A stretch of DNA of 64,000 bases from Sedimentisphaerales bacterium (GTDB lineage Bacteria > Planctomycetota > Phycisphaerae > Sedimentisphaerales > SM23-30), in assembly GCA_963666285.1 (NCBI GenBank), contig OY762711.1; one strand, written 5' to 3'. The notes below the pieces were generated by a model. It had not been told where the DNA came from. It saw only the letters and a list, made by a program, of their open reading frames with translations, and searched no databases. Both the position numbers and the translations under genes were made by a program. The stretch's first letter is position 1. Each line of letters opens with the position of its first letter. Positions 18,750 through 44,142 of the stretch are shown in pieces.

Positions 18750-18823
18750 CGCGGGATGGAGCAGTCTGGTAGCTCGCCGGGCTCATAACCCGGAGGTCAT
18801 AGGTTCGAATCCTATTCCCGCTA
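18750..18823 (+). tRNA. initiator tRNA-fMet (CAU)
   Basis: Cloverleaf; unpaired C1; anticodon arm CCGGG-CTCATAA-CCCGG with three consecutive G-C pairs; T-loop GGTTCGAATCC; CCA not encoded. Confidence 0.95.
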
Positions 18824-19431
18824 TTTATAAAGCATTAAAGGACAGGCACTTAGCTTGTTCTTTTTTGTATTTTAAATGCTTCAAATTTAAACAGTGTAGC
18901 AAATTGTAGCATTATTGATTTTGTCTTGTTTTTTTCTAACACATTAGAGTACTTTAATATTTTCTGTTCCGATTTATGCCTCTGTGAGGATGAGGCTGAC
19001 AAAGAAGAAAACACAGTAATATTCATATATTGCGAGTATTTCTGATGAAGTCAGCCGAAACCGCAACAGGCAAAAAGCGAACACGCCACAAAGTGATGCG
19101 AAGCATAAAAATTAAATTGCTCTAAATCGCTCCAAACTGTCGTCGTTTTTCATTTTTTATACACAAGAGTATAAAAAATCATTCGACTTACTCGATTATA
19201 TTTGAATTACGTGACAATTTTAATTTCAAATCAAATCTTCACTCTACATGAATACATTATCCCACAGGATACACCAAACTCGGTGACATCTGAATGATAA
19301 TAAAAAATTCTCGAGCTCCTGGCAAACACATAGCATTTGTCTTTTCCTATTTTCAATAATCGCAATTATACAATAAAACCAACAAAGGTTAATGGTGTGA
19401 AAATGACTGGATACAGTACATAGTTTTATTT

Positions 19432-20490
19432 TTACTCAAGCATTTCTTTTTGAAATTCCTCTATCTTCACCAAGGTTGAATCATGCAGTTTTAATTTACC
19501 TGAGACCTTCTCCCATTTATAAATACTGGTAGCAGAAATACCTAACTGTTGGGCAAATTTTGGCACAGACAGACCAGACTGCTTTCTTAGCATGGCAATA
19601 GCTTTGCCGGATGGCTGTTTTCGGATCTTGTTGTCATTTTTGGATAATTTTATTTTTCTTGCTACCTTTATTACCGTTTTCTTTTTACGGGCCAGTTTTT
19701 TTCGTTTGAAAACTACCTTCTTCTTGGCCTTGAACTTAGTTTTCTTAGCTGTTTTAGGAGTTGACTTAGCAGGTTTCTTATCCGGAAGATCCAGTTCGAT
19801 ATCATCACCAAATATGCCGACAAGTTTATCATTCGAGATTGTTTTAGCAGCTTTAGCGCCTACAATTTCAATTTTCATGTCACCACTGATAAGTTCACTC
19901 GCATCAACATTACGCAGAATAAACAGAAGCTCCGGTTGGCTATCTAACCTGTTACCTATTCCATACATTACAGCTGCTACATGCTTACACATAGTTGCCC
20001 AATCAGGACAATTACAACCCAGCTTTATTTCTCCTGGCAATGGCATAAGACCATTTTCACAATCGGTAACTATCTCCATTACATGGTCAGACAATTTCCC
20101 CTGCAATAGCTCTAACATTGTACCTATTTTACCAGCACATTGTTTCTTGATAGAATTCCACACTTTCTTTTTCAACGGTTCAATATGTATAACAATATTA
20201 TAAAGCTCTGATCCGCTGACAATTGCCTCTATTCGCCCGGGAAGTATTTCCAGATGACAAACTGATCCATTTCGAGCATAAGTCCTACCACGGGGAAGTC
20301 GATTTTCAAAATCCGAAAATGATTCCAGATGATCACACCAGGCCTTACCCCAAAAGCTTCTGGCAATCGCACGTCCTTCAATTTCAACAGGCTCGATATT
20401 CTTGCCTTTTTTCCGCATCTTTTCAATTTGCTTTTTAGCTTTTGCCCTTCGTTGCGATACAGGCACATACGGTTTCCAATAATAAGGCAT
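19432..20490 (-). CDS. SWIM zinc-finger protein with C-terminal XRE-type HTH
   Basis: RLPRGRTYARNGSV; CNCPDWATMCKHVAAV SWIM motif; Lys-rich linker; LRKQSGLSVPKFAQQLGISATSIYKWE HTH. Confidence 0.9.
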   Translation of the reverse strand: MPYYWKPYVPVSQRRAKAKKQIEKMRKKGKNIEPVEIEGRAIARSFWGKAWCDHLESFSDFENRLPRGRTYARNGSVCHLEILPGRIEAIVSGSELYNIVIHIEPLKKKVWNSIKKQCAGKIGTMLELLQGKLSDHVMEIVTDCENGLMPLPGEIKLGCNCPDWATMCKHVAAVMYGIGNRLDSQPELLFILRNVDASELISGDMKIEIVGAKAAKTISNDKLVGIFGDDIELDLPDKKPAKSTPKTAKKTKFKAKKKVVFKRKKLARKKKTVIKVARKIKLSKNDNKIRKQPSGKAIAMLRKQSGLSVPKFAQQLGISATSIYKWEKVSGKLKLHDSTLVKIEEFQKEMLE

Positions 20491-20502
20491 ACAAATTTTC
20501 TC

Positions 20503-23169
20503 CTATATTTTTGCACGAGTCACATCCAGACTGACCAGATCGATGATCTCGTCATCAGATAACTCTGTCAAATTCAGTTCTTTACCGGAAGATAAAATAT
20601 CATCCGCCATTTTCTGCTTTTCTGCAATCAAAAAATCAATTTTTTCTTCAACCGTGCCGGTGGTAACAAATTTATGCACCATTACACTTTTTTTCTGGCC
20701 TATTCGAAACGCTCGGTCTGTCGCTTGATTTTCGACCGCAGGATTCCACCACCTGTCAAAATGTATGACATGGCTGGCTGCGGTCAGATTTAGGCCGGTG
20801 CCCCCTGCTTTAAGAGATAATATGAAAAATGGAGGGCCATTTTCCTGCTGAAATTCATCTACCAGTTTCTGCCGGTATTTAACTGCGGTGCCACCATGGA
20901 TTGCAACACCTGTTCTTCCATATATACCGGCAAGGTACTCTGATAATGGCTCAATAATCTCTCTGAATTGTGTAAAGATAAGAACTTTTTCCTGACGAGA
21001 TGCGATTTCTTCACAAAGCTCTTTGAGACGCTGGAATTTCCCACTATCTGATGCAGAGTATTCAAAATCGCCTGTCAATTGGCTGGGGTGATTACAAATC
21101 TGCTTTAATCGCAATAATGACTGAAGTACCAGACCACGCCGTGCCATACCATCAGAATTTTCTAAGGATTCCTTCATCGTCTGGATAGTACGCTCATAAT
21201 GTTTTATTTGCTTTTTGCTCAAGTTACAATAGCACACTGTCTCAACTTTGTCAGGAAGATCGTTGATAACACTGCGATCAGTCTTAAGCCGACGCAAAAT
21301 ATAAGGCTGTACCAGCTGCTGCAAAGGAGTAAACTGGCAGCTTTCTCCCTCCTGAAGTCTTTTGACGAATTTCTTAAAAACAGATGCGGAGCCCAGTAAA
21401 CCCGGATTTATAAAATCAAATAATGACCAGAGGTCATCCAGCTTATTCTCTATTGGTGTTCCGGTTAATGCTAGTCTGGAAACAGACTGAAGTTTCTTAA
21501 CTGCCCTGGTTTGTCTTGTTGCCGGGTTTTTTATCGCCTGTGCTTCATCCAGAATAATATGCTGCCATTTCATCTCCCTCAACCACTCCTGACGGCTAAG
21601 CATCGAATAAGTAGTTATACATAAATCTGTTTCAGATAGTATTTCTTTCGGCTTTTTCGCTATCTTCTCTATTTTTGATCTATCCTGCTGACCTGGATGC
21701 AAGAAAGTTAATTTCAGCGATGGTGCAAAACGCTCAGCCTCCTTTCGCCAGTTACCCAAAAGAGAGGCAGGCACAATTAACAAAGATGGCAATGATCGCT
21801 TTTGCTTTCTTAATAATAAAGCAAGAACCTGAATAGTCTTACCCAAACCCATATCATCTGCCAGGCAGCCGCCCAGACCAAGCTCTGTTATAAAACTTAG
21901 CCAGGTCAGCCCATGCTGCTGATAAGGACGCAACTGAGCTTTTAGTTTAGGGGTTTTCTCGTTTCTATCCATAAGTGAGACTGGTTGCCGCATACTTGAC
22001 AACATCTCACGCAATTGCCCGCCCGCCTCAACCGAAAACCAGCCCTTGTCCTGATCAAGCAGGTCGTCTTCCTTTAGATCAGCTGAAGCGCCAGCTAATA
22101 ACCTCATACCCTCGATAAACGATATTTCTCCATCTTCTGCCTGATGCTGTAGATTTTGCCAGTGATCTATAGCTTCTTTTAACTTTTCACGATCAACCTC
22201 TATCCACTGGCCTTTGACCATGACCAAGCCATCATCACCAGAGAGAATATCTTCTATCTCCTCCCTTGAGAGCCTGTGACCTTCCAGTACAACTGAAACA
22301 TCAAAATCCAGCAATGTCTCAAGACCCAATTTAGACTTTTTCTGTTTATCAATAGTAACCGAAACTTGAGGCCTGGGCCTCTTTTTCCACCAGTTAGGAA
22401 TTCTTACGATCAACCCGCTATCTTCCAGTGTCGGAACCGTTTTCAAAAAATTATGTGCCGAAAAAACTGACCACGCTAACGGCTGATAAATTTCGCCGCT
22501 TTCGACAATCTCTCTGACCCAGCTGATTTTTTGAGATGCCTGATCTACAGGCATAAGAAGTTTGATCAACGCTGACCGGTTCTTTTTCCCTGCATATTCC
22601 TCCATTGCTTTGCGTAATGGCAAATGCCTCAACTTACCATTACAACCGAAACCCGTAGAATATGTAGCTAGAAAAGCAAATGGAAAATCTTCATCTGCCT
22701 TATTTTCAGCCAGATGAAAACACACCCTGCCAACCTGATGCCATTGTGGAGCATTTTTCTCTAAAAAAACTGACAAACTTCCAGCGGCTGCTATTTCATT
22801 GCTGCCCCATTTGCATAATTCACCCCATATCTGCTGCAAAAGCAATATTGTTATATATTCTCCTCCCTCCATCGGTGGAGCCGATAAGATTAAGGTAGAA
22901 AAAAAAATCTCTGGTGGACTATCAATTATTACATCACTATCAGACTCTGATATATGACATAATTCCGTTAAATATCGCTCGGCAATCCCCTGCCAGAATT
23001 TCAGCGAAAGTGAATTGGCAGTATTGTATTTATCGGCAGCAAGAACAAATAACCCTTTGACCCAGTCTTGCCCAAATATTTCTGCCAGTTTTTCTTCCTG
23101 TTGAGACCTTTTTTCTGGCTCTATAAGCCACTGAAGGTGTCCTGAAGGTGTTAATCTAATCTCGCTCAT
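20503..23169 (-). CDS. SNF2-family (SWI2) helicase/ATPase
   Basis: LRPYQ, LADDMGLGKT, LDEAQAIKN, LTGTPIEN, SLKAGGTGLNLT, DRWWNPAVENQATDRAFRIGQ. Confidence 0.95.
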   Translation of the reverse strand: MSEIRLTPSGHLQWLIEPEKRSQQEEKLAEIFGQDWVKGLFVLAADKYNTANSLSLKFWQGIAERYLTELCHISESDSDVIIDSPPEIFFSTLILSAPPMEGGEYITILLLQQIWGELCKWGSNEIAAAGSLSVFLEKNAPQWHQVGRVCFHLAENKADEDFPFAFLATYSTGFGCNGKLRHLPLRKAMEEYAGKKNRSALIKLLMPVDQASQKISWVREIVESGEIYQPLAWSVFSAHNFLKTVPTLEDSGLIVRIPNWWKKRPRPQVSVTIDKQKKSKLGLETLLDFDVSVVLEGHRLSREEIEDILSGDDGLVMVKGQWIEVDREKLKEAIDHWQNLQHQAEDGEISFIEGMRLLAGASADLKEDDLLDQDKGWFSVEAGGQLREMLSSMRQPVSLMDRNEKTPKLKAQLRPYQQHGLTWLSFITELGLGGCLADDMGLGKTIQVLALLLRKQKRSLPSLLIVPASLLGNWRKEAERFAPSLKLTFLHPGQQDRSKIEKIAKKPKEILSETDLCITTYSMLSRQEWLREMKWQHIILDEAQAIKNPATRQTRAVKKLQSVSRLALTGTPIENKLDDLWSLFDFINPGLLGSASVFKKFVKRLQEGESCQFTPLQQLVQPYILRRLKTDRSVINDLPDKVETVCYCNLSKKQIKHYERTIQTMKESLENSDGMARRGLVLQSLLRLKQICNHPSQLTGDFEYSASDSGKFQRLKELCEEIASRQEKVLIFTQFREIIEPLSEYLAGIYGRTGVAIHGGTAVKYRQKLVDEFQQENGPPFFILSLKAGGTGLNLTAASHVIHFDRWWNPAVENQATDRAFRIGQKKSVMVHKFVTTGTVEEKIDFLIAEKQKMADDILSSGKELNLTELSDDEIIDLVSLDVTRAKI

Positions 23170-23278
23170 CTATAATAATCATTTCCTAAAAAAATAATGT
23201 AGCCAACCAAATTGAAATATTAAATTATTTATGCAGGTATATTTTGGCCATATCAGGATAAGTTTTCTCCGACAACAA

Positions 23279-24748
23279 TTATACAATTACCCAGTGGCCG
23301 CCTTTATCCGGGCCTTTACGGAGTAATTTCCCATTTTCTTTTAGAATTTTAATGTAACGTTCTATGGTTCTTGGACTTACACCAATCTTTTCCGCCAACA
23401 CTGCCATTGTTATCTCTCTATTCTGGCCAATAAGCTCTAATACTCTTTCTAAATTTTTCTCCGACATTTTCTCCGACATTTTCTCCGACACTGTCGGAGT
23501 AAACGCTGGGTGTATTCCAAACTCTACCGTAAAATATGTCCTGTCTTCATCAGTATGAAACTCAGGCAAAGGAGACTGGTTCTGCCGAATAGCTTGAAGC
23601 ATTTTGGGTATACCGGTGCCGCGACCTTCTGTCATGTCCAGCTCTTTTAAAAATTCACCTATCCTGCGATTGCGATATCGACGAGCAAGGAATTTAAGAT
23701 TTTCGATATCCTCGTTACGAATAGACCGGTCTGGACCTGGAAAACTGTTTACCAGTATTCTGTCTGGATGAACCTGGATTTCAACCGGCTCGCGAATCTC
23801 ATAGCTTCTATGATATATCGCATTACATACTGCCTCTTCAATTGCGGCAAATGAGTAATTATAAAACCTGTCAGCTTCCGGCTTGTCAGGATGTTTTATT
23901 ATTTTTTCCTGGATAATGGTATTTTTAATATAGGCTAAGGCATCTGAAAGCATCCGGCCAAGCGGACCTTTGAATATCTTTTCAGTGAAATTATCAGCTC
24001 CCGGTCCTTCCGGGAAATGGACCACGTCAATTTGTGTCTGGGGAAAATATTTATCCGGAGACTCATTGAAAAACATCAGGCCGATATTTTTAGGCTTTAC
24101 AGATTCCAGCGGACCATCAATAATATTCATTTGCCGACAAAGCTGGGTAAAGTCCATTGTTGCTGAAAGGTCAAACAAATCGCTTCTAACCTGCTTGAGA
24201 TATGTCCGCATTAAGCCAAGGTCAAGATCATCGATAGTGGCCAATTGGTTTATCCAGTCATCGTATGGCACATTAGCGGCAAGGCCGATCAATTCTGTCT
24301 CTTCGGCATGCCTTGCCTTGGTTGTCACCGATCCTTTGCGGATATAATAAGCAAACTCACAGTTATCTTTACTTAGAGACACTGGAGCTTTGTATGGTCG
24401 ACTTTGACCACCTGCTGCATATAAGACAAGAATATGCTTACCATCAATCTCACACGGAGCGACAACTGGATGATAATACGGCTGAATTTTATACCCCAAC
24501 TCCACAATTTCCTTCTGTAGCTTATCTAATTCATTAATTGAAATACCTTTCGGAGGAAGCTCAGGTATACCGTTATTCTCGCTTACACCAATTACCAGAT
24601 AACCACCGCCAAGATTATGAAAGTCATTGGCAAACGCACAAAGCGTCTTGGTGACAGCTTCCGGATTCCAGCCAGACTTAAATTCAAGCCTTTCCCACTC
24701 TACAGTCTTGCCAATCAAAATATCATTTATATTAATTGGGAGTTCCAA
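23279..24748 (-). CDS. AlbA_2/Schlafen-domain protein with HATPase-like domain and C-terminal HTH (RecG-annotated family)
   Basis: EWERLEFK, CAFAN...GGYLVIGV, EEAVCNAIYHRSY, EGRGTGIPK, G.DKGGHW. Confidence 0.88.
   Translation of the reverse strand: MELPININDILIGKTVEWERLEFKSGWNPEAVTKTLCAFANDFHNLGGGYLVIGVSENNGIPELPPKGISINELDKLQKEIVELGYKIQPYYHPVVAPCEIDGKHILVLYAAGGQSRPYKAPVSLSKDNCEFAYYIRKGSVTTKARHAEETELIGLAANVPYDDWINQLATIDDLDLGLMRTYLKQVRSDLFDLSATMDFTQLCRQMNIIDGPLESVKPKNIGLMFFNESPDKYFPQTQIDVVHFPEGPGADNFTEKIFKGPLGRMLSDALAYIKNTIIQEKIIKHPDKPEADRFYNYSFAAIEEAVCNAIYHRSYEIREPVEIQVHPDRILVNSFPGPDRSIRNEDIENLKFLARRYRNRRIGEFLKELDMTEGRGTGIPKMLQAIRQNQSPLPEFHTDEDRTYFTVEFGIHPAFTPTVSEKMSEKMSEKNLERVLELIGQNREITMAVLAEKIGVSPRTIERYIKILKENGKLLRKGPDKGGHWVIV
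23455..23490. repeat. 3 x 12-bp in-frame tandem repeat (TTTTCTCCGACA)
   Basis: Encodes SEKMSEKMSEKN just before the HTH. Confidence 0.9.
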
Positions 24749-25143
24749 ATTGTACTAATCCTTAAAATACAGATTTTTCTGAAAAATGTCTATCTAAACC
24801 AGAATAATACTGTTAGATAAATAATTATGTATTCTAAAGTCGTTTGACCAAAAATGCCAAACCTTAATTAAAAAATACAACTATGTTACAGCGAGATCCC
24901 CTTAATTATACTTCATATCTACTTGTTATTCTGAAAAATAAAATGAAAGAAAAAGATTTGCGCATATATTGTAGTATTGTATATAATTCTGACATGGCTT
25001 ATTAGTGTCATTAATTTGTCATATATTTTGTGCTCGCATAGCACAACATGCGCAATATGCAGAATTGAGATTACCTTAGGTATGATAAGGACTTAAATGT
25101 AAATACTTGATATCTAAAAACTTGTGATTTTGCCTTTTAACCA

Positions 25144-25294
25144 GCTCATAATTCGGAGGTCATAGGTTCGAATCCTATTCCCCGCTATTCGACGTAAGTC
25201 ACTAAGGAACAAGAAGTTAACTTGTTCCTTTTTTTATGCGCAAACCGGGCAGTTTACCCCCGAGGCGTGTCTCAGGCTTGTCCATGCGTGCCGA
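25144..25294 (+). repeat. att-like junction 1: tRNA-fMet 3' fragment, terminator hairpin, arm
   Basis: GCTCATAATTCGGAGGTCATAGGTTCGAATCCTATTCCCCGCTA resembles 18781-18823; hairpin AAGGAACAAG/CTTGTTCCTT plus T-run. Confidence 0.92.
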
Positions 25295-25688
25295 GCAACA
25301 TAAATATTTCAAATAATAACCAACCTATAAGGAATATTAACGCTATCAAAGGTATAGCATACCCGATGATTCTTCGCGCACTAAATCCAAATACACCTCT
25401 ATTTGCTTTTTCATTCACAGTAATTACAGGATGATCATTTGGAAACTCTCCAAGATATATATCTAATTTTTTCTGTGCTCTAATAATAGGCAAAGACAAC
25501 AAACTACATATTATTACGCCAAAAATTAATATTGGAATAAAATACTTTGTCTTATTTGCCATTATTGCTGCATTTGCAATAAGAGATAAAAATATAATAA
25601 AAAAGTTAAAACGCTGGTTGAGTATATTTTCTATAAATGCACGCTCTTCAATTAGCTCTCTTCTATTTCTATCATTTTGTTCTTCCAT
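25272..25688 (-). CDS. hypothetical membrane protein (3 TM)
   Basis: 138 aa hydrophobic ORF; its 3' end runs into the junction arm. Confidence 0.65.
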   Translation of the reverse strand: MEEQNDRNRRELIEERAFIENILNQRFNFFIIFLSLIANAAIMANKTKYFIPILIFGVIICSLLSLPIIRAQKKLDIYLGEFPNDHPVITVNEKANRGVFGFSARRIIGYAIPLIALIFLIGWLLFEIFMLLGTHGQA

Positions 25689-25864
25689 TAGAGTACCCTT
25701 TCAATAATTTTTTTATTTCCACATATTTTACACACAAAGCAAGGACAGGTTACAAATATGAGCTATTTATCAACAGTGTAACACTTGGGGTATCTTTTAA
25801 TACTCATAAAGTCTCATTATTTGCCTGGTCAAATTGACATCAAGTACTCTAACAAATAATATAA

Positions 25865-26138
25865 GGCTTGTTTTGGCTTGTCGGCGTGTACTGATATGCC
25901 GGATTTTCCGCTATTTTCCGACTTCTGAAAAAAGCGTAAAGCCATAAATGCAATTAAGATAAGGGTTTATGACGAAAATGCGCTTGCCGCTTGAAACCGG
26001 CAGCTCATAGGTTCGAATCCTATTGGCCGCATTCGACGTAAGTCACTAAGGAACAAGAAGTTAACTTGTTCCTTTTTTTATGCGCAAACCGGGCAGTTTA
26101 CCCTTGAAGGCGTGTATCGGCTTGCCGAGGCGTGCCGA
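25865..26138 (+). repeat. att-like junction 2 with both arms
   Basis: Core TCATAGGTTCGAATCCTATTGGCCGCA (26005-26031); GGC(G/T)TG(C/T) motifs on both sides; conserved terminator hairpin. Confidence 0.92.
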
Positions 26139-26248
26139 TCTATATGCAATTCTGGAGAATAAATGTATCTCCGGCGTAATCAGGTCAATTATAGCATCTC
26201 ATTTTACATGCGTTAATAATCGTATGTCATGCTGGTAAAATGCTTCTA

Positions 26249-26380
26249 TTTGTAAGTCAGCTTGCAATGAAAGGAGAAAGTTTGTATAAAATAAGTGTTT
26301 TAATGGGCAATTCACCTGAAATATGCCGAAGGCATTACGCCGCACTAATGCCATAAAGTTTGTTTGAGTGTGTTGATTTT
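26249..26380 (+). pseudogene. tyrosine recombinase/integrase C-terminal remnant
   Basis: Translates to FVSQLAMKGESLYKISVLMGNSPEICRRHYAALMP*SLFECVDF, resembling box II with the catalytic Tyr; internal TAA; no N-terminal part. Confidence 0.8.
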
Positions 26381-26441
26381 GCATTAATATCTACACTACG
26401 TAATATTGTTTAATTCGATACAGATAAAGAAGCATAGTCAT

Positions 26442-27197
26442 ATGAAAAAACATAAAATTAAATATACCAGTTGCCCAAAATGCGAGTCAACGGTAAAGGT
26501 AAGCAGTGACTGGGTAGCTTGCACCATATTATTTGTAATTCTCCTTTCTGCAGGAGAGTTTTTTATATTGATTCCTATAATAAGTGGAATGATAGATAAA
26601 GAAGGAATAGGGGCTAAACTAGCAGTTGCTACATTTGGTTTGATTGGTCTTTGCCTGATTATTTATGCAATGTCAATTTGGTGGGTATTTGGAAAAAATA
26701 AGCAAGGTAAATGCCGTACTTGTTTTAGCCATGTCAATACAGTAAATAAAAAAATAGAGTCAGGTAAACGCGACTGGGTTACAACCTTAGAAAAAGAAGG
26801 TAATACGCTTTCACCTGAAGAAGTAACTATTTATAAAGAATATCAGATTTTTAGAAATAATAATCAATTAATCGACCCTGAAATTACACATAGCTGGATG
26901 CAAAAAAATAGGATTTACAATCTATTTATCAAGGGAGTTCTTTTTGGAGCAGGTCCATTGGGCTGGGCGTACTATTACATAATCAATGCTCAATCAATTG
27001 ATAAGATGAAAACAAAAATTGAACAATTTAACTTACAAGCCATCACATTACTATCTGATGGGAAAGAATATGAAGCTCTCATGTGGATCCTAGCAATAGA
27101 AAATAATATTGCGCCTAAATACATAGAAAAAGAAGTATATGACACTAAAACAAAAATTATTTCAATTTTAAAAGAAAAATCTACATGTCTTAATTAG
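26442..27197 (+). CDS. hypothetical membrane protein with CxxC motifs
   Basis: ORF 26406..27197, likely ATG 26442; CPKC and CRTC flank two TM helices. Confidence 0.65.
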   Translation: MKKHKIKYTSCPKCESTVKVSSDWVACTILFVILLSAGEFFILIPIISGMIDKEGIGAKLAVATFGLIGLCLIIYAMSIWWVFGKNKQGKCRTCFSHVNTVNKKIESGKRDWVTTLEKEGNTLSPEEVTIYKEYQIFRNNNQLIDPEITHSWMQKNRIYNLFIKGVLFGAGPLGWAYYYIINAQSIDKMKTKIEQFNLQAITLLSDGKEYEALMWILAIENNIAPKYIEKEVYDTKTKIISILKEKSTCLN

Positions 27198-27276
27198 TAA
27201 ACTAAAGCATAACTTAAACTATCAGAATAAAGCCAGATAGCTAGAATTTTATAAAATTCGTTTTTAACGCTATAAT

Positions 27277-27507
27277 AACTCCCCCGGAGACTTACGAGAA
27301 TTTATTTGCAATTCTGGGAAAGAACGGCCCAAAACACTCAACTTCTTCTTTGGAAAACATATTATTTTCAGTCCCGAAAAAGCCTTGTTGAAAGTACGTC
27401 AAAAACAACTAAATAATAATTCAGACGCATTACTGAAAAAACACCAAAAACATGTAAATCTAGTGTGGAAATTCGGGCATATAGTTAACCAAAACGTGCA
27501 GGGCGAG
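27277..27507 (+). repeat. island-specific non-coding repeat family B
   Basis: Matches 35463-35755 and 43760-43937 (CAAAACACTCA.CTTCTTCTTTG.AAAACATATT...GTAAATCTAGTGTGGAAATTCG). Confidence 0.9.
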
Positions 27508-27515
27508 GTAGCTAG

Positions 27516-27911
27516 TCATATTTTATTGATCTGGAATTTTAGAGAATAGCCGATCAGGAAGACGTTGATGGGGACGGTGAGCAGGGCGATTATGCCGAAA
27601 CCGAACTGCATTATGCCGTAGTTGGTGAGGGAATATTGGTCGCCTTGTTTGATTATGAAATCATCGATTCTGCTGTCGGGGCCGGTTGTTAGTACTGTGA
27701 AGATAATGAATACAACGTTCAACAGAGGCATGAGCTAAGATAGGGCGATTATCTTCCAGTTTGGTTTGATTCTTCTGAGCCAGAAGTAGCGATAGCACCA
27801 TGCTATAGCGGCGAGGTTTAGCAGCAGGAAGATGGAGAGTTTTATGATTGTGGTTGTTTCGAATATGCCAGCCGGTTCTGATGGGATTGTGTTTTGTGGA
27901 GGGGTTATCAT
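27516..27911 (-). pseudogene. membrane protein interrupted by an in-frame TAG
   Basis: ATG 27911 reads MITPPQ...WKIIALS-TAG(27735-27737)-LMPLLNVVF in frame with ORF 27516..27731. Confidence 0.65.
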
Positions 27912-27961
27912 ATATTAGATGAGTTATTCTTTTTATCGGTTGAGGATAAATTATATGATTA

Positions 27962-28767: not shown

Positions 28768-29031
28768 CTACCTTAGACGGTATATGTCGCCTGTCTTAAT
28801 ACTTTCAAAATGACGGGCATAAACATCATTTCTACCTTGGAACAAATTCCTAAAACACTTAATTTTATCTGCTACTGAAGATGAATTCGAAAAAGAGCTA
28901 ACATTTCTTTTTGTCTTTGATATTACTTTTTCAATTTCAGCAATTTCTTGCATGATATCTTGCCTTCTTGCATTTAGGCTAGAAAGTTCTTTACGCAGAT
29001 CATTAAGCCGGTTTTGTTTATCATGATTCAA
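28768..29031 (-). pseudogene. N-terminal fragment of a TOTE-system primase/helicase-like protein
   Basis: DKIKCFRNLFQGRNDVYARHFESIKTG resembles the conserved EKI.LF..LF.GR.DVYA.RFES.KTG start; truncated at 87 aa. Confidence 0.6.
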
Positions 29032-29070
29032 AATAAACTTCCAAATACATTATACATTTAGCTAACAAAC

Positions 29071-30081: not shown

Positions 30082-30084
30082 ACT

Positions 30085-30687: not shown

Positions 30688-30708
30688 AGTGATATCCTAA
30701 GTTATTAC

Positions 30709-31213: not shown

Positions 31214-31284
31214 TAAATTGCGTTTTTTGAGAAAAATATCAATATTCCTGTTTGAAGGTCAAATATTTACGTATCTGCTTTTTA

Positions 31285-32731: not shown

Positions 32732-32774
32732 GCTTTTTAACCACACGAATGAAAATAAACTATTCTGATTGGTT

Positions 32775-32934: not shown

Positions 32935-32947
32935 GTAATGCTGACAC

Positions 32948-35361: not shown

Positions 35362-35462
35362 GATTACTCCTTAAAGTCATTATATATAATAACTTCTAGA
35401 TATTATATTAAATATTAACTATTGTCAACCACCAACTTATTCAACACCAAAGTCATAAAAAC

Positions 35463-35899
35463 AACTCCCCCTGAGACTTACGAGAAAACCGAGGGAGTTA
35501 ATTTGGATGAAGCATAAATTTTTATTGTTTGGGTTGCCAATCAATTTACATTTCTGGAAAAGGATGCTTCAAAACACTCAGCTTCTTCTTTGAAAAACAT
35601 ATTATTTTTCAGTCCCAAAAGGACTGGTTGAAAGTACGTCAAAAACATCAAAATAACAATTCAGACACATTACTGAAAAAACACCAAAAACATGTAAATC
35701 TAGTGTGGAAATTCGGGCATATAGTTAACCAAAACGTGCAGGGCGACCTAGCGAGTCGATTTTGAAAATTGATGAAAATCGGTCAATAATTAGCGTTTTT
35801 TTAGCTGATTTTCGTAAATGAAATTGCTGTTTCCTCTCATTCTACGTAGCGGAAACCTGGATTTCGCACTTTTCAGGATTAGCAATTCACGTTTCGTAC
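35463..35899 (+). repeat. island-specific non-coding repeat family B, longest copy
   Basis: Matches 27277-27507; 35853-35898 matches 43942-43988. Confidence 0.88.
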
Positions 35900-36253
35900 C
35901 CCCCCACCCCTAAAAGTCGCTAGGTGGGGTCTTCTTTCTTCGCATTAAATGCCTCACACAGATAGGATCAATCCTAGCATCAACAATATATGTTGTAGAA
36001 GCTTTCACATCATTTGTAATATTATCTAACCTTATTCCAGAACCATAATCAAACTGCAACCCAAAAGACACTTTTAAAAAAATAAAAAAGAAATAAAGTG
36101 AAAATTAATTATTTTTCTTAGTTTCATTGAAAATCTCCTTGCTATGTACACTAAATATACATTATTTCAACCGTTAAACATGTAAAATTGTATTGCTTCA
36201 GTTGGAATTGGACATTTCCTGAATTATTGTTAGTATAGTCTAGCAGAAAGGAA

Positions 36254-36577
36254 ATGTACATGGCAAAGCGTAAGAATTATTCAGCAGAAGAGAAGGTAAA
36301 GTTACTCAAAGAGCATTTGGTTGATAACGTTCCGGTGTCAGAGATATGCGAGCGAATCGGTCTAAATCCTAATGTATTTTACAATTGGCAGAAGCAGTTT
36401 TTTGAAAATGGAGCTGCGGCATTTACAAAACAGGCCAAGAGCCGAAAAGTTCCTTATGATAAACGATTAGAGCGTCAAAATGCACAACTTCAGGCAAAGA
36501 TAACTCAAAAGGATGAAGTAATTGCCGAGATTATGGAGTCACATATCAAGCTAAAAAAAAGTCTTGGCGAGGACTAA
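36254..36577 (+). CDS. IS3 transposase OrfA
   Basis: HTH_Tnp_1-like RKNYSAEEKV..VSEICE..GL.PN.FYNWQKQF; A8 slippery run at 36553-36560. Confidence 0.9.
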   Translation: MYMAKRKNYSAEEKVKLLKEHLVDNVPVSEICERIGLNPNVFYNWQKQFFENGAAAFTKQAKSRKVPYDKRLERQNAQLQAKITQKDEVIAEIMESHIKLKKSLGED

Positions 36578-37462
36578 ATGGTTCCTGGGCTGAACCTGAT
36601 GTTCGTGATCAGGTAGTTGACTATGTAGGCTACTGGACCAACCGAACTGAAATTGTTGCCAAGGTCATGATAAAGTGGCTGGGCATATCCCGCAGTAAAT
36701 ATTATAACTGGAAGAAGCGATACGGCATGGAAAACGAGCATAATGGTCTGATACCGAGAGATTTCTGGCTGACCGAAGCCGAGAGACAGACGATAATAGA
36801 TTATTTCCGCCGATATTCGAAAGAAGGTTATCGCAGATTGTGTTATATGATGATGGATGCCGATATTGTAGCAGTAAGTCCTTCCAGCGTATATCGGGTA
36901 TTGAAAGATGCCGGGTATATGGACAGGTGGAACCGTAAAGCCAGCAAGAAAGGCACCGGTTTTGTTCAGCCGATACAGGCTCATGACCATTGGCATATAG
37001 ACATATCTTACCTCAATATTTGCGGCACGTTTTACTACATGTGCAGTATTCTGGACGGCTACAGCCGTTATATTGTTCACTGGGAGATCCGTGAAGCAAT
37101 GAAAGAATACGATGTAGAGATAATTTTGCAGAAAGCCAGGGAGAAGTTCCCGGATGAAAACCCTAGGATTATCTCTGACAATGGACCGCAGTTTATATCG
37201 AAAGACTTCAAGGAATATATCAGGCTCAGCGGCATGACACATGTAAGAACCTCGCCGTATTATCCACAGAGTAATGGTAAGTTGGAAAGGTATCATAAAA
37301 CTATCAAAAGTACCTGTATTAGACCAAAAACGCCGTTATCTCTGGAAGATGGTCGGCGTCTGGTAACAGACTTTGTTGACCATTATAATAATAAACGGTT
37401 GCATAGTGCGATAGGTTATATTACTCCGATTGATAAGCTTGAGGGTAGAGCCGAGGCGATCC

Positions 37463-38909
37463 GATAACGTATAATATTTTTCGCACAATTTTATTGGACG
37501 TGATAAAAGAAGTCCTTCATCCGGTCGATAGTAATGTAACGAACAAATTATTATTAACCAGAAGAAAGGACTTCAAATGAAACAGTTAGAGCAATCGACC
37601 GGAAATGACAAGAACTTGAATAATGTCATAAAAATTGATGAGGCACGGGTAAAGCATGAGCTTGGAGATCTAGTACGTACCACCGTTGAGGATACGTTGA
37701 ATACCATGCTTGATGCCGAGGCTGACCAGCTTTGTAATGCTGCACGATATGAGCGTAGCGAAGCTCGTAAAGATACCAGAGCAGGTTTCTATGATCGTAA
37801 GTTGCAAACTCAAGCCGGTGAAGTCAATTTGAAGATGCCCAAGTTGCGTAAGACCACATTCGAGACAGCCATAATTGAGCGTTATAAGCGTCGTGAATCA
37901 TCCGTAGAGGAATCTCTAATAGAAATGTATCTTGCAGGCGTTTCTGTTCGCAGGGTTGAAGATATCACTCAGACGTTATGGGGAACAAAGGTAAGTCCCG
38001 GCACAATCAGCAATCTCAACAAGAAGGTTTACAGTCAGATAGAACAATGGCGTAATCGAGAGCTTAAAGGCAATTACCCTTATGTTTACCTGGATGGGAT
38101 AGTTCTAAAAAGAAGCTGGGCTGGAGAGGTTCGCAATGTTTCAGTCCTGGTCGCAATAGCAGTCGATCAGGACGGTTACCGAGAGGTATTAGGCAGCTGG
38201 GAAGGTCCCAAAGAAGACAAGGAAGGATGGGGGCAATTTCTCAGGCATTTGAAATCCAGAGGGCTTAAAGATGTAAGGTTGTTTGTTACAGATAAGTGCA
38301 TGGGGCTGGTAGAGTCTCTTGAGCAATACTACCCAGACTCGCTATGGCAAAGATGTACAGTACATTGGTATCGTAATGTTTTTAGCAAAGTTCCACGTCA
38401 GAAGGTTCGTGAGGTAGCGGCTATGCTTAAAGCTATCCATGCTCAGGAAGACAAGAAAGCAGCAGAGGAAAAAGCCAGGCAGGTAATTGAAAAACTTCTC
38501 TCTATGAAATTGAAAGAAGCTGCCAAAGTTGTAGAAGAAGGTTACATGGAGACTATGAGCTATTATAACTTCCCTGATGAGCATTGGAGCAGACTGAGAA
38601 CCAATAATGGTCTGGAACGTATAATGAAAGAGATTCGGCGACGTACCCGAGTTGTTGGTAGTTTTCCAGACGGTCATAGTGCTTTGATGTTAGCCACTGC
38701 CCGGCTAAGACATATAGCAGGAACAAAATGGAGTACTAAAAGATATCTGAATATGGAGCATTTATACGATCTTGAGAAGGAGCAAAAAATGAATAAAAAA
38801 ACTGGCTAGCGACCGATAACTCGCCGCCCCCCTAGGGGGGCATCCAGAACCGGGAAAAGACCGGATGAAGGATACTCTAATAAATGTGCGAAAGATTCTT
38901 GACACTACC
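37463..38909 (+). mobile_element. IS256-family insertion sequence, copy 2 (1447 bp)
   Basis: Reverse complement of copy 1; 8-bp TSD GGCGATCC at 37455-37462 and 38910-38917. Confidence 0.95.
37577..38809 (+). CDS. IS256-family transposase
   Basis: Protein identical to 31385..32617. Confidence 0.95.
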   Translation: MKQLEQSTGNDKNLNNVIKIDEARVKHELGDLVRTTVEDTLNTMLDAEADQLCNAARYERSEARKDTRAGFYDRKLQTQAGEVNLKMPKLRKTTFETAIIERYKRRESSVEESLIEMYLAGVSVRRVEDITQTLWGTKVSPGTISNLNKKVYSQIEQWRNRELKGNYPYVYLDGIVLKRSWAGEVRNVSVLVAIAVDQDGYREVLGSWEGPKEDKEGWGQFLRHLKSRGLKDVRLFVTDKCMGLVESLEQYYPDSLWQRCTVHWYRNVFSKVPRQKVREVAAMLKAIHAQEDKKAAEEKARQVIEKLLSMKLKEAAKVVEEGYMETMSYYNFPDEHWSRLRTNNGLERIMKEIRRRTRVVGSFPDGHSALMLATARLRHIAGTKWSTKRYLNMEHLYDLEKEQKMNKKTG

Positions 38910-39277
38910 GGCGATCCATGCCGAACGTGACAGGAAGCTGGAAGCAGCCAGAGCAGCCCGAAAACAGAAACGGAAATCAGCTTGACAGTTTGAATGATGT
39001 AATTGATAATGCATTTGTCCGGCGAAACGGAAGCAGGCTCTGCAGAGGTGCAACCTGCCAGGGATAGCCGGAACTGAGCGACGAATTGTCGTTATGGTGG
39101 TGGTTGCACGCTGCCACCATTTTCAAAGATCATTCAGAGCTTTGTAATGCCTTAAAAAACCTGTAAAATAAAGCCTTGCCGAAGGCAAAACATGTTGTTA
39201 AAATCAAGACGTAAAGTCTATTAAATTGGAAACGGATTTGTCCAGTTCACGCTGAACCAGTACAAAATAGTTTAATA

Positions 39278-42200
39278 TTATTCAAGCCAGCTATCTACAA
39301 ATATCAGGAAATCTTCCATATCGGTCGAACCTGAAACATTGAAGTCTGTCTGGCCACAGTAATATATACTTGCACAATCAGAACATAGCCACATGGAAGC
39401 TATTGCCCCTAAGTCCAAGATATTAATATTGCTATCCCCATTAATATCTGGTGAGAATGAATCAGGTTCCCAAATAAATCTCGGATAGTAATTTTCGGTA
39501 AGCTTCCACCCCTCGCCATCACCATCAGTATCGCCAATATCCCAACCGGCAAAGGTAGAAGCATCCATCATTTCGGCTGTGTTCTTGCCAACTGCGCCAT
39601 AGTTATCATCTCCAGATAATCCTATACCTGAAACCTCAACATCCCAGAAACAATCAGAAATATTTGCTTCAGTTGTTTCCAATACACCAATATCACCTAC
39701 TATACTAATTGAGCTTGTACCAGCACTGCTGGAAACATAGTTATAACCAACCAAACCACCTACATGAATATACTCTGGAGCCCCGGTTTTAGTAGCTGTT
39801 ACCCGGCAACCAGAAAAACAGCCTAAGATTCGACTATCTCTATTATAACCTACCAAGCCACCAATATAATCATAACCTTTTATATAACCCAAAGCATAAC
39901 AACAAATAATGCTACCGTCATAATTTCTTCCTACTAGGCCACCTATTTTTTCATCTCCTGTCACAGAGCCAGTGGAGAAACTATTACTGATAGCTCCACT
40001 GTTTACCCCAACTAGGCCGCCAGAATCATCGCCGATAGCTGTTACTGAACCTATGGCATAACAGCTACTGACAATACTATCATGATCATTATATCCTACT
40101 AAGCCGCCTAAACAACTTTCTCCAGTAACTGAGCCAGTAGCATAACAAAGATTAACACTACCAATATTTTGACCTACTAGGCCGCCAGTGTACCACCCCT
40201 CACCAGTTATACTACCAGAGGCATGACAGTTGCTTATTTCTCCATTATTACATCCCACCAAGCCGCCGACATGACCACCAGTCCCTGTAACTGAGCCGGT
40301 GGCATAACAAAGATTAACACTACCAATATTTTGACCTACTAGGCCGCCAGTGTACCACCCCTCACCAGTTATACTACCAGAGGCATGACAGTTGCTTATT
40401 TCTCCATTATTACATCCCACCAAGCCGCCGACATGACCACCAGTCCCTGTAACTGAGCCGGTGGCATAACAGTTACTAATACTAGCAACAATAAGATCAT
40501 ATACACTGACGTTTCCTACCAGACCACCTGCGACACCTCCACCTCCGGTTACTTGGCCGGTAGCATAACTGTCAGTAATGCTTACAACATTGTTGGCACC
40601 ACAACTACAATCTCCAGCCAAGCCACCTGCGCTATATCCGGTTACTTGGCCGGTAGCATAACAATTACTAATACTAAAAACACTGCTGCTTTCATTTATA
40701 AAACAACCTCCAACCAGACCGCCAGTATAAGATCCGGTTACTTGGCCAGTAGCATAACAGCTACCAATACTAATAACACCACTTTCATTATATATACGAC
40801 AATATCCAACAAGACCACCTGCGACACCTCCGGTTACTTGGCCGGTAGCATAACAATTACTAATAATAACACTGCTGTTGTATCTTGTATAACAATATCC
40901 AACTAAGCCACCTGTATCATTATCTCCTGAAATCAATTCCGTGGCATAGCAGTTACTAATGCTTACAGCACTTCTGTCACTATTTGTACAACAATATCCA
41001 ACCAGGCCACCTGTACCATTATCTCCTGAAATCAATCCGGTGGCATAGCAGTTACTAATGCTTACAGTATTACTGTCACCTTTTGCACAACAATATCCAA
41101 CCAAGCCGCCTGCATAACAGCCAGAGCATGTAATATCAATATTTTCTAATCCCAGATTTCTAATAATGGCGGTTTTCTCTATATAGCCAAATAAACCACA
41201 ATAATCCTGACCATCAATTTTTAGGTTGCTTATCTTATGGAAATTCCCATCAAATAAGCCAGAAAACTCTACACCATAAAAATAACTGCCATCTTTCGTA
41301 TTTGGCGATATAACAGCCGAATCAAAAATATAGCCATCCATATCAATATCTTGCATAAGAATAAAATGACTATTATAGAGTTCAGGTAAATTGTGCAATG
41401 CACAAAGCTGCTGCGATGTTGATATCTGGAATGGGTCTTCTGCTGTCCCATCGTTGTTACTTGCATATCCGCTTATCTCAAAATAATAAGCAAGGTTATT
41501 CGGATCATTACTTGCTATGATTACCCGGTCCTGATAAAATCCAAAATCGTCAGTACCTATATCCAGAGTAACATCAAAGGTTGTATAGCCACCAGGAGCA
41601 ACGACACTATCTGGCAAATAGGAAATACTAAACTCAGAATCAGAGGCAAGCTGAACTGAAACCTCTAATGGAATATTACCATCATTTTTAATTACAAATT
41701 CTTTTGTAATTATACCATTGAATGTTGAGAAATCAGTATTATCATATACTGATGGAGTATCATCTTTATTTGCAATAACCTGATCATTACCCAATACACT
41801 TATTTTTGCTTTTGCATCAACATAAAAATCTATATTATACAAATTTGCAGTATTATAACCGGAACTCATCCCTAGAGATATTGCCTGATCCTGGGCCTCA
41901 ATCGAACCTTGATCTTCAATATAAACATAATAATTTCTATTTCCTGGTACTTGGGAAAATGAATATATACCGTTATTGTCCGATGTCACAGTGTCAATAA
42001 CTTCAAATTGATCTGTTCCAATAATTTTATTACCAATATTTATAGTGACACCTCCTGCAGGAGTACCTTCCAAATCATAAATTCTGCCACTAACTATTTC
42101 CCCTGTTCCTATGTGGTAGATATTATAAACACATTTATGCACAATATTACTTGCATACAAGTCTGTATATATATTTGGAAGATTATACCATAGGTTATAT

Positions 42201-43318
42201 AAGCCGGTCCAGCCCATATTCAGATGATATAAATCTGTTGAATTATCTATACCATATCCATCAGCCACAATTGCATGCCCACCATCATTCCCATCAATAC
42301 CAAGCATAACTGGATATGTCGCAAATAGATTAGATATTAATATTTTATCTAAGTTTGCTTTGTCAATACCATTTTGATTTCCTCCTTTAATAGCATTTGA
42401 ATATTTAAAAACATCTAAGAATGCATCCCCTGCATTTAATGTGTTCGCACCAGACCCACTAGCAGTATACGACATTCCCACAGAAACACCTGCATCATAG
42501 CATAAAGCACCAATTGCTTTTCTAGAAGTCTCAGATGTGTAATAATTAGGCGTTGTTTGCATTGCTCCCCAATTATACTGCCCTCCAACACCGTCTCCAC
42601 CTATTGTAGTTCTAGTTTCAGTTATACCATCAATTGTGATACTTGAGGATACCGCACCAATACTATCTATTGGATACTGGTGGTAATACATAATTTGAGC
42701 CATGGCTGTAGCAACGCATCCACAAGGATAATTATTAGGTGTATAATAATTGTAACAGAGGTTGCCGCCAGCCTCAGTCTGATCCCATTCTGTTTTCAAT
42801 AGCGGCTCTACCAGAATTTCGTCCATATCAGAATCTGTAGTTCCATTAGATGCTTTTGAAACAATTATAGCTGAAATGCTTTTCCACTTACTCTGCATCT
42901 CGGCAAAGTATTGTTCATTTTCAGTAGAAGATTTACTCTTGACTCTGTTTCTTACATAACTGGTTCTTTGCCTTAAATCTTTATCAGCCAAAGAAGCAAG
43001 CGGATTATCTGTTGTTAGATCATATTTTCCATTTTCAGAGAAAGCAATAATAGGCTCGACCTCATCATCAGCTGAGACAATAATAAAACCACTAGGAGCA
43101 AGATTGACAATATGATATATAGGAACTTTATCTTTGCCGGAGTATGTGTCAATGGTGTCGATACTAGTTCCAAGTTCAACACCAAGATGGGTATTTCCCT
43201 GGCTCAACCAACCTTGTACCATCTGCTTGGCATCGCTGGCAGACATAACAGCAGCATTAACAACATTGGATACAAATGAGCACACAACCACAATAATAAT
43301 TAAAGTGTTTTTCATCAT
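39278..43318 (-). CDS. secreted C10 (streptopain-like) cysteine peptidase with propeptide, Ig-like domains, GLUG repeats and dockerin-like tail
   Basis: GFIIVSADD..PIIAFS propeptide; WDQ, CGCVATAMAQ, GGHAIVADGY, NMGW catalytic motifs; many GGLVG..CYATG repeats; DINGD..INILDL tail. Confidence 0.9.
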   Translation of the reverse strand: MMKNTLIIIVVVCSFVSNVVNAAVMSASDAKQMVQGWLSQGNTHLGVELGTSIDTIDTYSGKDKVPIYHIVNLAPSGFIIVSADDEVEPIIAFSENGKYDLTTDNPLASLADKDLRQRTSYVRNRVKSKSSTENEQYFAEMQSKWKSISAIIVSKASNGTTDSDMDEILVEPLLKTEWDQTEAGGNLCYNYYTPNNYPCGCVATAMAQIMYYHQYPIDSIGAVSSSITIDGITETRTTIGGDGVGGQYNWGAMQTTPNYYTSETSRKAIGALCYDAGVSVGMSYTASGSGANTLNAGDAFLDVFKYSNAIKGGNQNGIDKANLDKILISNLFATYPVMLGIDGNDGGHAIVADGYGIDNSTDLYHLNMGWTGLYNLWYNLPNIYTDLYASNIVHKCVYNIYHIGTGEIVSGRIYDLEGTPAGGVTINIGNKIIGTDQFEVIDTVTSDNNGIYSFSQVPGNRNYYVYIEDQGSIEAQDQAISLGMSSGYNTANLYNIDFYVDAKAKISVLGNDQVIANKDDTPSVYDNTDFSTFNGIITKEFVIKNDGNIPLEVSVQLASDSEFSISYLPDSVVAPGGYTTFDVTLDIGTDDFGFYQDRVIIASNDPNNLAYYFEISGYASNNDGTAEDPFQISTSQQLCALHNLPELYNSHFILMQDIDMDGYIFDSAVISPNTKDGSYFYGVEFSGLFDGNFHKISNLKIDGQDYCGLFGYIEKTAIIRNLGLENIDITCSGCYAGGLVGYCCAKGDSNTVSISNCYATGLISGDNGTGGLVGYCCTNSDRSAVSISNCYATELISGDNDTGGLVGYCYTRYNSSVIISNCYATGQVTGGVAGGLVGYCRIYNESGVISIGSCYATGQVTGSYTGGLVGGCFINESSSVFSISNCYATGQVTGYSAGGLAGDCSCGANNVVSITDSYATGQVTGGGGVAGGLVGNVSVYDLIVASISNCYATGSVTGTGGHVGGLVGCNNGEISNCHASGSITGEGWYTGGLVGQNIGSVNLCYATGSVTGTGGHVGGLVGCNNGEISNCHASGSITGEGWYTGGLVGQNIGSVNLCYATGSVTGESCLGGLVGYNDHDSIVSSCYAIGSVTAIGDDSGGLVGVNSGAISNSFSTGSVTGDEKIGGLVGRNYDGSIICCYALGYIKGYDYIGGLVGYNRDSRILGCFSGCRVTATKTGAPEYIHVGGLVGYNYVSSSAGTSSISIVGDIGVLETTEANISDCFWDVEVSGIGLSGDDNYGAVGKNTAEMMDASTFAGWDIGDTDGDGEGWKLTENYYPRFIWEPDSFSPDINGDSNINILDLGAIASMWLCSDCASIYYCGQTDFNVSGSTDMEDFLIFVDSWLE

Positions 43319-43606
43319 TGATTTCCTAAATAATTATTAACCATCAAAAGGCAGAAGGATGAAGAGCTCAATTACTCACTCAAACTTCCCAGATTTAAGA
43401 TTATTATTTTACCAAAATCAGTTTACAGAACAAAATAAAAAAAAATTACAAAACACCCCTCAAAAACTCCGTTTAACGACCTCCGGGGTAGAGATACATT
43501 AACAGGTTAAAAAGTGGGTACACTTTTGGGTACACATGATATATTGACATTATATAAACCATTAAAAAGACTGTAAGTTATGATTTTGCAAAGCTTTAAG
43601 GAAGCC

Positions 43607-43757
43607 CTCATAACCCGGAGGTCATAGGTTCGAATCCTATTGGCCGCTATTCGACGTAAGTCACTAAGGAACAAGAAGTTAACTTGTTCCTTTTTTTACG
43701 CGCAAACCGGCCAGTTTACCCGCCAGGCGTGTCTCAGGCTTGCCTGGACGTGCCGAT
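43607..43757 (+). repeat. att-like junction 4
   Basis: CTCATAACCCGGAGGTCATAGGTTCGAATCCTATT identical to tRNA-fMet, then GGCCGCTA, terminator and arm; TGGGTACAC direct repeats upstream at ~43515-43535. Confidence 0.92.
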
Positions 43758-43988
43758 CAATTTGCAATTCTGGAGAAAAAACGCCCCAAAACACTCAACT
43801 TCTTCTTTGAAAAACATATTATTTTTCAGTCCCAAAAAACCTTGTTCAAAGTACGTTAAAAATAACTAAATAACAATTCAGACGCATTACTGAAAAAACA
43901 ACAAAAACACGTAAATCTAGTGTGGAAATTCGAGCATGCAAAAACCTGTATTTCGCACTTTTCAGGATTAGCAATTCACGTTTCGTAA
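43758..43988 (+). repeat. island-specific non-coding repeat family B
   Basis: Directly continues the junction 4 arm; matches 27306-27480, 35545-35720 and 35853-35898. Confidence 0.88.
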
Positions 43989-44142
43989 CTCATCATCCCC
44001 AATATACAACAGCTAACCAGTTCCTGGTAAGCTTTTCTAATCCGGCCTCGTACAGATGATTTCAGCTCCCAGCTGAAACGCCCTTTACTACGCCAATCCC
44101 AACCTATGCCTTTCTGTATTAACACCTGAGATTTTCAATAGC

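Follow-up and report, generated by a model that had tools for sequence, protein, structure and literature searches.

Probable tandem accretion and decay of mobile elements at a tRNA-fMet gene in a Sedimentisphaerales bacterium

We analysed a stretch of 64,000 nucleotides (hereafter the window) from contig OY762711.1 of a Sedimentisphaerales bacterium (assembly GCA_963666285.1), whose genome of 6.35 Mb, 97% complete, is referred to here as G000. The window holds an island of cargo genes behind a tRNA-fMet gene (18750–18826, plus strand; ARAGORN tRNA-Met(CAT) call at 18750–18823), which is the integration target. Among the four CAT tRNAs of G000 this is the only one of initiator type as judged by sequence features: its first base is unpaired and its anticodon stem contains consecutive G-C pairs, both of them marks of initiator tRNAs. 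An earlier reading made from the sequence alone (the original prediction) had described the island as an integron-like stack of integrase-less cassettes. We consider it likely that the island was formed instead by tandem accretion and subsequent decay of mobile elements at this single gene, in the manner of cis-mobilizable elements (CIMEs).

The intact tRNA is followed, as originally described, by four direct copies of its 3′ part, which start at about 25144, 25991 (labelled 26005), 31066 and 43607. Start-to-start spacing, counted from the tRNA, is 6363, 845, 5075 and 12542 bases, close to the units of ~6.3, ~4.9 and ~12.4 kb that had been estimated, while the small unit (~0.7 kb in the original prediction) measures 0.85 kb. 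Behind each direct copy lies one terminator-plus-arm block of ~105 bp (87–94% mutual identity), and a diverged version of the terminator, also noted previously, follows the intact tRNA. The genome-wide BLAST search of the block that had been proposed returned five matches in the 6.35 Mb of G000, all within the window. The fifth, which had been missed, is an inverted copy at 15282–15550 with 89% identity over 270 bp to 25860–26127; since the match spans both sides of the core, this copy carries both arms. A core-plus-arm pattern also matched G000 five times, whereas its reversed version, used as a control, had no match in any of 401 genomes, which excludes a chance origin of the repeats.

The flanking sequences fall into three arm classes with putative integrase arm-binding sites, assigned by analogy with lambda, in line with the earlier proposal that the block holds a terminator and likely arm sites. 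Class A arms have a pair of TGTACC-like sites behind the terminator and go with integrases 60–67% identical to the query; class B arms mostly have TGTAGCA/TGCAAC-like pairs and integrases 37–48% identical to the query; and class C arms, which form the repeated block of the window, have three GGC(G/T)TG(T/C) sites 10–11 bases apart. By alignment, the left end behind the intact tRNA is of class B (18836–18915, plus strand; terminator and TGTAGCA site pair, with no integrase behind), and those behind all five copies are of class C. Alignment of the flanks left of the copies with element ends in relatives assigns the one at 31066 to class B, those at 26005 and 15413 to class C and the one at 43607 to class A; a probable, weakly aligning class B right arm occupies 25010–25143 (plus strand).

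Read from end to end, the plus-strand junctions consist of tRNA 3′ copy 1 with terminator and class C left arm (25144–25296); a class C right arm, copy 2 with loop CTTGAAA and a class C left arm (25860–26140); a class B right arm, copy 3 and a class C left arm (30930–31214); and a class A right arm, copy 4 and a class C left arm (43536–43760). The fifth junction (15282–15550, minus strand) resembles the attachment (att) site of a circular element (attP-like), with a class C right arm, an altered tRNA core and a class C left arm, and could stem from a circle that opened or from past inversions. By alignment to tRNA-fMet the five copies carry 3, 9, 3, 2 (in the acceptor strand) and, in the inverted copy, 10 changes; a defective acceptor strand is common to three of them. 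Two of the four units have mismatched ends, unit 3 (C-B) and unit 4 (C-A), and the last left end is without a partner. Having ends from different classes, units 3 and 4 are chimeric, and such mismatches are the expected leftover of deletions across junctions. The single family of non-autonomous elements originally proposed therefore does not fit three right-arm classes, mismatches in two of four units and mutated cores.

Two side observations concern these junctions. The anticodon loop CTTGAAA at 25991–25997 and 15407–15413 (minus strand) is that of tRNA-Ser(TGA), with three changes that all lie in the anticodon; it may reflect an overlap swap or chance. Loci of tRNA-Ser(TGA) also host relatives of both integrase families (L081, L184). 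In another genome (G053, contig C3; L214/L215), an integrase-primase module lies between two class C left arms that point towards each other at a distance of 15.5 kb and share 93% identity over 287 bp, so inverted att copies are not peculiar to G000.

No PF00589 match was found in the window, confirming that it lacks an intact integrase. It does hold two class A integrase 3′ stubs, both on the plus strand, one at 26249–26380 (the last ~45 codons, with one stop) and one at 32775–32931 (with an internal frameshift). In G000 as a whole the class A/B family is represented by C-terminal stubs only, and searches with A/B and C queries found no intact class A, B or C integrase in this 97% complete genome; for the class C (G033-type internal) integrase introduced below there was no match at 1e-25, the best reaching 27%. 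Zot, Rep G2P and the DUF5906 primase gave no matches in G000 either. Inovirus genes (Zot/pI ATPase, Rep, coat) are thus absent from G000 and present in the related genomes G003 and G020, and the primase-helicase and integrase of satellites are absent from G000 and present in G033, G053 and G143. The search for a cognate integrase that had been suggested accordingly succeeded in relatives and not in G000, where no helper for the postulated mobilisation in trans was found.

In a weak tree of 150 columns, the window stubs group with a G003 stub (support 93/89), while six other stubs are scattered. A single ancestral stub-bearing satellite across the order was rejected, as these six lie outside the 93/89 group. 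Several stubs begin near codon 335–341, which led us to consider a special breakpoint in the integrase gene. The idea was rejected, since fragments that keep only the N-terminus occur about as often as C-terminal fragments, the breakpoints are spread over 294 to 373, and the sequences preceding the stubs have nothing in common.

The stubs belong to a block order that occurs twice with differing cargo: arm, stub, cargo, hairpin and the repeat D1, at 26005–27517 and 31066–35913. In the first block, half of a hairpin shared with G003 is followed by D1 (27274–27517, plus strand); in the second, a full copy of the hairpin is followed by D1 and a further repeat, D14 (35455–35913, plus strand). D1 and D14 appear again behind the class C arm of copy 4 (43756–44002, plus strand), and no closing att was found downstream of them. 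We read D1 as sequence trailing the class C arm in G000; that it might be the remains of a gene or a further att site was rejected, there being no homologue in relatives.

Intact counterparts occupy the same site in related genomes, several of the 41 searched having two or three tRNA-fMet copies close together. G003, from the same genus, has two tandem units at this tRNA, each comprising an integrase, defence cargo and an inovirus block (contig C1, 673.6–713 kb; loci L043, L044 and L057, with two inovirus-like prophages in tandem). The first encodes a 396-amino-acid (aa) tyrosine integrase, Mza-type restriction-modification (RM) genes, a secretin, TraX, Zot, small coat-like proteins and Rep G2P. 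A perfect tRNA 3′ copy comes next, followed by a second integrase, DarTG, a ubiquitin-like module (multi-ubiquitin/E2/ThiF) and a second inovirus block, with a third integrase stub and HNH cargo downstream. The units of G020 and G037 consist of integrase, cargo and Rep. These relatives' integrases end in the peptide quoted in the original prediction, which therefore comes from a family with intact members at tRNA-fMet elsewhere. Across 251 genomes of the order, 70 have a match to the class A/B family (~28 matches near full length), and a tRNA core lies ≤450 bp upstream of the integrase in 30 of 31 loci examined. Compared with their own tRNA over 42 bases, the relatives' downstream copies are identical in 8 of 11 cases, one base off in one and four paired bases off in two. 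These data support the view, also part of the original prediction, that tyrosine-integrase elements accreted here in tandem and that the repeats represent their att junctions. As a separate observation, the orientation of purN-HAD relative to the tRNA is inverted in G003 compared with G000 and G001.

Class C has a different architecture. Its pattern occurs in 11 other genomes of the 401, of which eight have it at tRNA-fMet cores, two have it at other tRNAs and one is a chance match, and in 22 metagenome stretches, 21 of them distinct. No intact A/B integrase lay behind a class C arm in the matched genome or metagenome loci, only five of the metagenome loci having ~10 kb or more downstream; in G033 and G105 a class A stub is found there. 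The exact pair of C sites was present in 0 of 30 A/B loci, with two loose matches in 2 of 30. In G033, a C-bounded unit of 15 kb contains an internal 388 aa integrase that faces the tRNA and stands beside a D5-like primase-helicase and a toprim gene. Relatives of this integrase at ≥56% identity define seven loci. In five (G033, G053, G143, L194 and L206) a class C arm lies 4–15 kb downstream; the other two offered no usable context. Class C integrase fragments in G291 and G156 lack a usable tRNA context. We therefore predict that class C elements use this internal G033-type enzyme. Even in intact elements, no integrase adjoins a class C left end, and a right-side deletion leaves an arm plus cargo, which would account for the integrase-less impression that the island gives.

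Further observations were made at these loci. A degenerate tRNA core with C-like sites lies upstream of the internal integrase in G033 (L048, 11433–12035) and G053 (L215). A sequence common to G037 (L045, 5388–7244) and G008 (L041, near 15276) starts directly behind the att terminator, is followed in G037 by a 462 aa open reading frame (ORF) and presumably resembles a terminator-targeting group II intron. The exact arm motif had 0 matches in metagenome contigs, so that no second strain of the species was found with which to compare unit order, as originally suggested, and viral contigs held no relatives of the class A integrase, the class C arm pattern or the G003 Zot-like protein.

We propose that each incoming circle would bring a tRNA 3′ copy and recombine at the anticodon loop, either of the tRNA or of an older junction; the crossover is placed there because identity in relatives begins at this point. 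At least three integrase classes would have been involved. Both integrase stubs, together with the right arm at 43536, may stem from class A elements (integrase directly behind att; inovirus or Rep-only), the arm behind the tRNA and the right arms before 25144 and 31066 from class B elements (integrase also directly behind att), and the repeated block from class C elements (primase satellites, with the predicted internal integrase several kb from att). Integrase and replication genes would then have been deleted, leaving att junctions and cargo, with cross-junction deletions joining the halves of different elements, and insertions of IS256, IS3 and a miniature inverted-repeat transposable element (MITE) would have come afterwards. 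This is the order of events that we infer. Decay is favoured because each tRNA copy carries 2–10 changes, the stubs contain a stop and a frameshift, and insertion sequences (ISs) have entered the island.

By itself, the window island is an ordinary decayed island of a known kind. In the three-step CIME model, integration is followed by decay to a CIME and then by entry of a new element at att, giving chimeric internal sites (PMC5704250, section 2.3). Each unit here is bounded by direct repeats of the target gene 3′ end; the units have no integrase, transfer or replication genes, as shown by PF00589 and cargo scans; and related intact elements occupy the same site (G003, G020, G037, G033, G053 and others). 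The CIMEs and ICESt1-related islands of Streptococcus thermophilus likewise retain att after losing the genes for integration and transfer, form tandem stacks at the 3′ end of a gene and have chimeric att from unrelated integrases (PMC5704250). In contrast to those CIMEs, the elements here derive from inoviruses, Rep-only elements and primase satellites rather than from integrative and conjugative elements, and the att cores are mutated and may be past the mobilisable stage.

Other known systems share parts of this picture. In Dehalococcoides there are ssrA islands that are also tandem and bounded by repeats of one essential RNA gene, with 15 of 31 lacking an integration module and read as possible CIMEs; those islands involve a serine recombinase, a tmRNA target and dehalogenase cargo, in contrast to the tyrosine integrases, tRNA-fMet and partly defence cargo found here (PMC3146451). 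Prochlorococcus tycheposons are tRNA-targeted (one target being a tRNA-Met), are in some cases adjacent with a partial tRNA between them and give rise to islands from leftovers, whereas their hosts and gene sets differ (bioRxiv 10.1101/2020.12.28.424599). Inoviruses in tandem and integrated at tRNAs are already known (PMC6813254), and Pf6 is an integrase-bearing inovirus prophage at tRNA-Met (PMC11341870). Integrase-bearing inoviruses such as Pf6 resemble the class A parents in G003 and G020, with Zot, secretin, TraX, Rep G2P, small coat-like genes, defence cargo and tandem arrangement at a tRNA; unlike inovirus prophages, the window has no inovirus genes and retains only integrase stubs, one right arm and cargo. 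For class C, the likeness is to P4-like and phage-inducible chromosomal island (PICI)-type satellites, which carry a primase: the parents share a tyrosine integrase, a D5-like primase-helicase, a toprim protein and variable cargo. Unlike in those satellites, the class C integrase lies 4–15 kb inside and faces the tRNA, and none of the satellite genes are in the window. Open-licence papers, taken without their supplements, yielded no report of these elements in this order.

We next considered present mobility. Sequencing reads were represented by contigs from three runs of one study (at most two samples), in which rare variants are dropped. These contigs span the cores at 25144, 26005 and 31066 without a break and, within that limit of dropping rare forms, contained no joint between two att copies and no circle joint, which is weak evidence on the excised circles that the original prediction had suggested looking for. 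One joint, from 31235 to 27323, was traced to the 43607 arm-D1 junction placed on a paralogous site, its variant letters matching the 43607 copy. A missing cognate integrase and a lack of circles, which the original prediction had itself named among the signs of dead remnants of ordinary islands, are largely what was seen, the latter in these contigs. We infer that the units are now immobile, and predict that mobilisation in cis by a newly arrived intact element is the most that could still happen to them.

Several observations weigh against accretion followed by decay as the whole account. In silico, excision at 25144 or 31066 yields a product with an ARAGORN tRNA-Met call, although this holds for only two of five products and both have weakened anticodon-stem G-C pairs. 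A 20-base T-arm region has a single change in the 100 positions of the five copies together, while the anticodon and acceptor parts have drifted. The read data are limited to contigs of a single study, which drop rare forms. They include a low-depth joint from 18825 to 26301 (run X2 only; its shorter side spans 28 letters) and a depth drop from ~30–44 to 12–14 at 32.7–35.6 kb in runs X1 and X2. Excision in a subpopulation is a doubtful cause of this dip, which is V-shaped, is centred between identical inverted IS256 copies and has no matching joint; contig depth, moreover, does not give a share of cells. The class C integrase was assigned solely by its co-occurrence with the arm. The ends of unit 2 are both of class C, and this unit could once have moved in trans; those of unit 1, judging from its aligned flanks, are probably both of class B. 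Other genomes have integrase-less units of 3–5.5 kb with perfect or near-perfect tRNA copies: two in G008 (L041), one in G036 (L050) and one in L206 (contig MRWG01001090.1). These keep trans-mobilisation possible for the order, less so for the window. Finally, the five class C left arms are 84–94% alike, in contrast to ~60% against arms of other genomes, and their alleles are mosaic. Such genome-specific mosaic arms imply that local copying or conversion also acted, one-by-one accretion alone being insufficient.

The strongest competing explanation, which we nevertheless regard as improbable, is that the C-bounded units are non-autonomous mini-elements which visiting class C primase satellites excise and re-integrate in trans through their integrase, the array being a landing pad reshuffled at each such visit. 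Unit 2 speaks for it, with 0.85 kb, one gene and class C arms at both ends. The inverted junction at 15282–15550 is complete, attP-like and separate from the array; the 5.5 kb C-bounded unit of L206 has no integrase and one mismatch in 42; C-right/core/C-left junctions recur at L191, L192, L206, L207 and L210; and the acceptor-strand defect shared by three copies indicates that defective copies were duplicated. Exchange of the lambda type, however, is blocked by unlike overlap bases, and between its two ends unit 2 has three mismatches in the 7-base loop. This explanation also has to contend with the missing class C integrase in G000, the mismatched arms of units 3 and 4, the lack of circle joints in the contigs and the fact that no cargo was seen twice in different places. 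An elaborated form, to which we attach similarly little probability, would be a satellite-of-a-satellite system in Sedimentisphaerales: C-bounded cassettes (0.85 kb here, 5.5 kb in L206) would be moved in trans by primase-satellite integrases, those with damaged tails would land only at older junctions and so make the array their target, and the 7-base overlap swap to the tRNA-Ser(TGA) loop (26005 and 15413) would give a sub-family its own address.

Less probable again is that unequal recombination of the RecA type, or gene conversion, among repeats of 100–270 bp generated most class C left copies locally, without separate insertions. The genome-specific and mosaic arms, the double occurrence of the arm-stub-cargo-hairpin-D1 order and the 93/89 grouping of both window stubs with that of G003 are what this would produce, but three right-arm classes with homologues in different relatives, together with unrelated cargo, need several independent arrivals. 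Such a process may have operated on top of the accretion and decay that we favour.

The integron comparison, in which a platform at the tRNA would catch single-gene cassettes via folded single-stranded sites, has next to no likelihood, and a true integron is already refuted. An array of unrelated cargo parted by repeated sites does recall integrons, as do the repeated block at the junctions, one cassette-sized unit and cargo mostly on one strand; yet there is no IntI (the best TIGR02249 score in G000 is 85 against a cut-off of 265 bits, and a relative's integrase scores 23), attC R-box pairs numbered 0 at six junctions by the box consensus, no stable hairpin other than the terminator is shared, the repeated sequence derives from the 3′ part of a tRNA and provides double-stranded cores with arm sites, and IS elements are present. 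Moreover, integron cassettes are mostly single promoterless ORFs, whereas three of the four units are multi-gene and 5–12 kb long.

Between the tRNA and 43607 there are 11 non-IS cargo ORFs of ≥100 aa, 10 of them on the minus strand, in agreement with the predicted strand bias. The claim that they are mostly defence genes was too strong, as four of the 11 are clear defence genes: AbiEii, AbiEi, a type II endonuclease and its methyltransferase. Unit 1 (19432–24748, minus strand) encodes a 352 aa protein with a C-terminal helix-turn-helix (HTH), an 888 aa SNF2 helicase and a 489 aa AlbA_2/HATPase_c_4/HTH protein; the SNF2 protein matched only the helicase part of the ZorD and DpdE models, below NCBIfam cut-offs. 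The single gene of unit 2 (25272–25688, minus strand) has its stop codon inside the arm and encodes a 138 aa membrane protein that is 8xMP-like (PF24838, below cut-off) and has two homologues at 49–54%. This protein and the AlbA_2 protein are leads. In unit 3, a 263 aa protein of no known family is encoded directly behind the stub (26406–27197, plus strand), and AbiEii and AbiEi, a type IV toxin-antitoxin/abortive infection pair, lie at 29071–30687 (minus strand). Unit 3 also has, on the minus strand, a broken membrane-protein gene (27500–27960) and an AEP-TOTE primase fragment (28768–29070). Unit 4 contains the type II RM system (32948–35361, minus strand; methyltransferase 497 aa, endonuclease 308 aa; ~30% GC) and the largest gene, for a 1346 aa peptidase C10/GLUG-repeat surface protein (39278–43318, minus strand).

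Of the insertions, the MITE-like repeat (18936–19142) has 24 genome matches, 10 of them ≥150 bp. An IS256 element with a target duplication (31285–32732, minus strand) is identical to a second copy at 37462–38909, which splits an IS3-family element (36188–39264, plus strand). The two IS256 copies are inverted and 4.7 kb apart, and could invert the RM-IS3 segment.

The wider significance lies in the site rather than in the window island. In a planctomycete order that has been little studied, tRNA-fMet serves as a common hotspot for at least three integrase classes, including those of inovirus prophages and primase satellites. The variable cargo slots are rich in defence genes (Mza-type RM, DarTG, the ubiquitin-like module, AbiE and type II RM) and are a place to mine new ones, such as those for the 138 aa 8xMP-like and 263 aa proteins. 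A warning also follows for annotation: the ends of intact class C elements look integrase-less, the predicted cognate integrase lying kilobases inside. The units of G008, G036 and MRWG01001090.1 are better test cases for trans-mobilisation than those of the window.

Some further features lie outside the island. At 59903–64000 a tRNA-Thr is followed by low-GC, short unknown ORFs and a bPH_2 protein, with no integrase within the window. The sole serine recombinase of G000, at 2.97 Mb, has no link to the tRNA-fMet site. Contigs C2, C3 and C4 of G000 (65–67 kb) are related, with blocks of 75–95% identity; all three encode a tyrosine recombinase, lack long matches to the chromosome and are likely phages or plasmids. 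Nine tRNA genes are clustered at C1:5226832–5229866, a kind of cluster that phages or islands carry.

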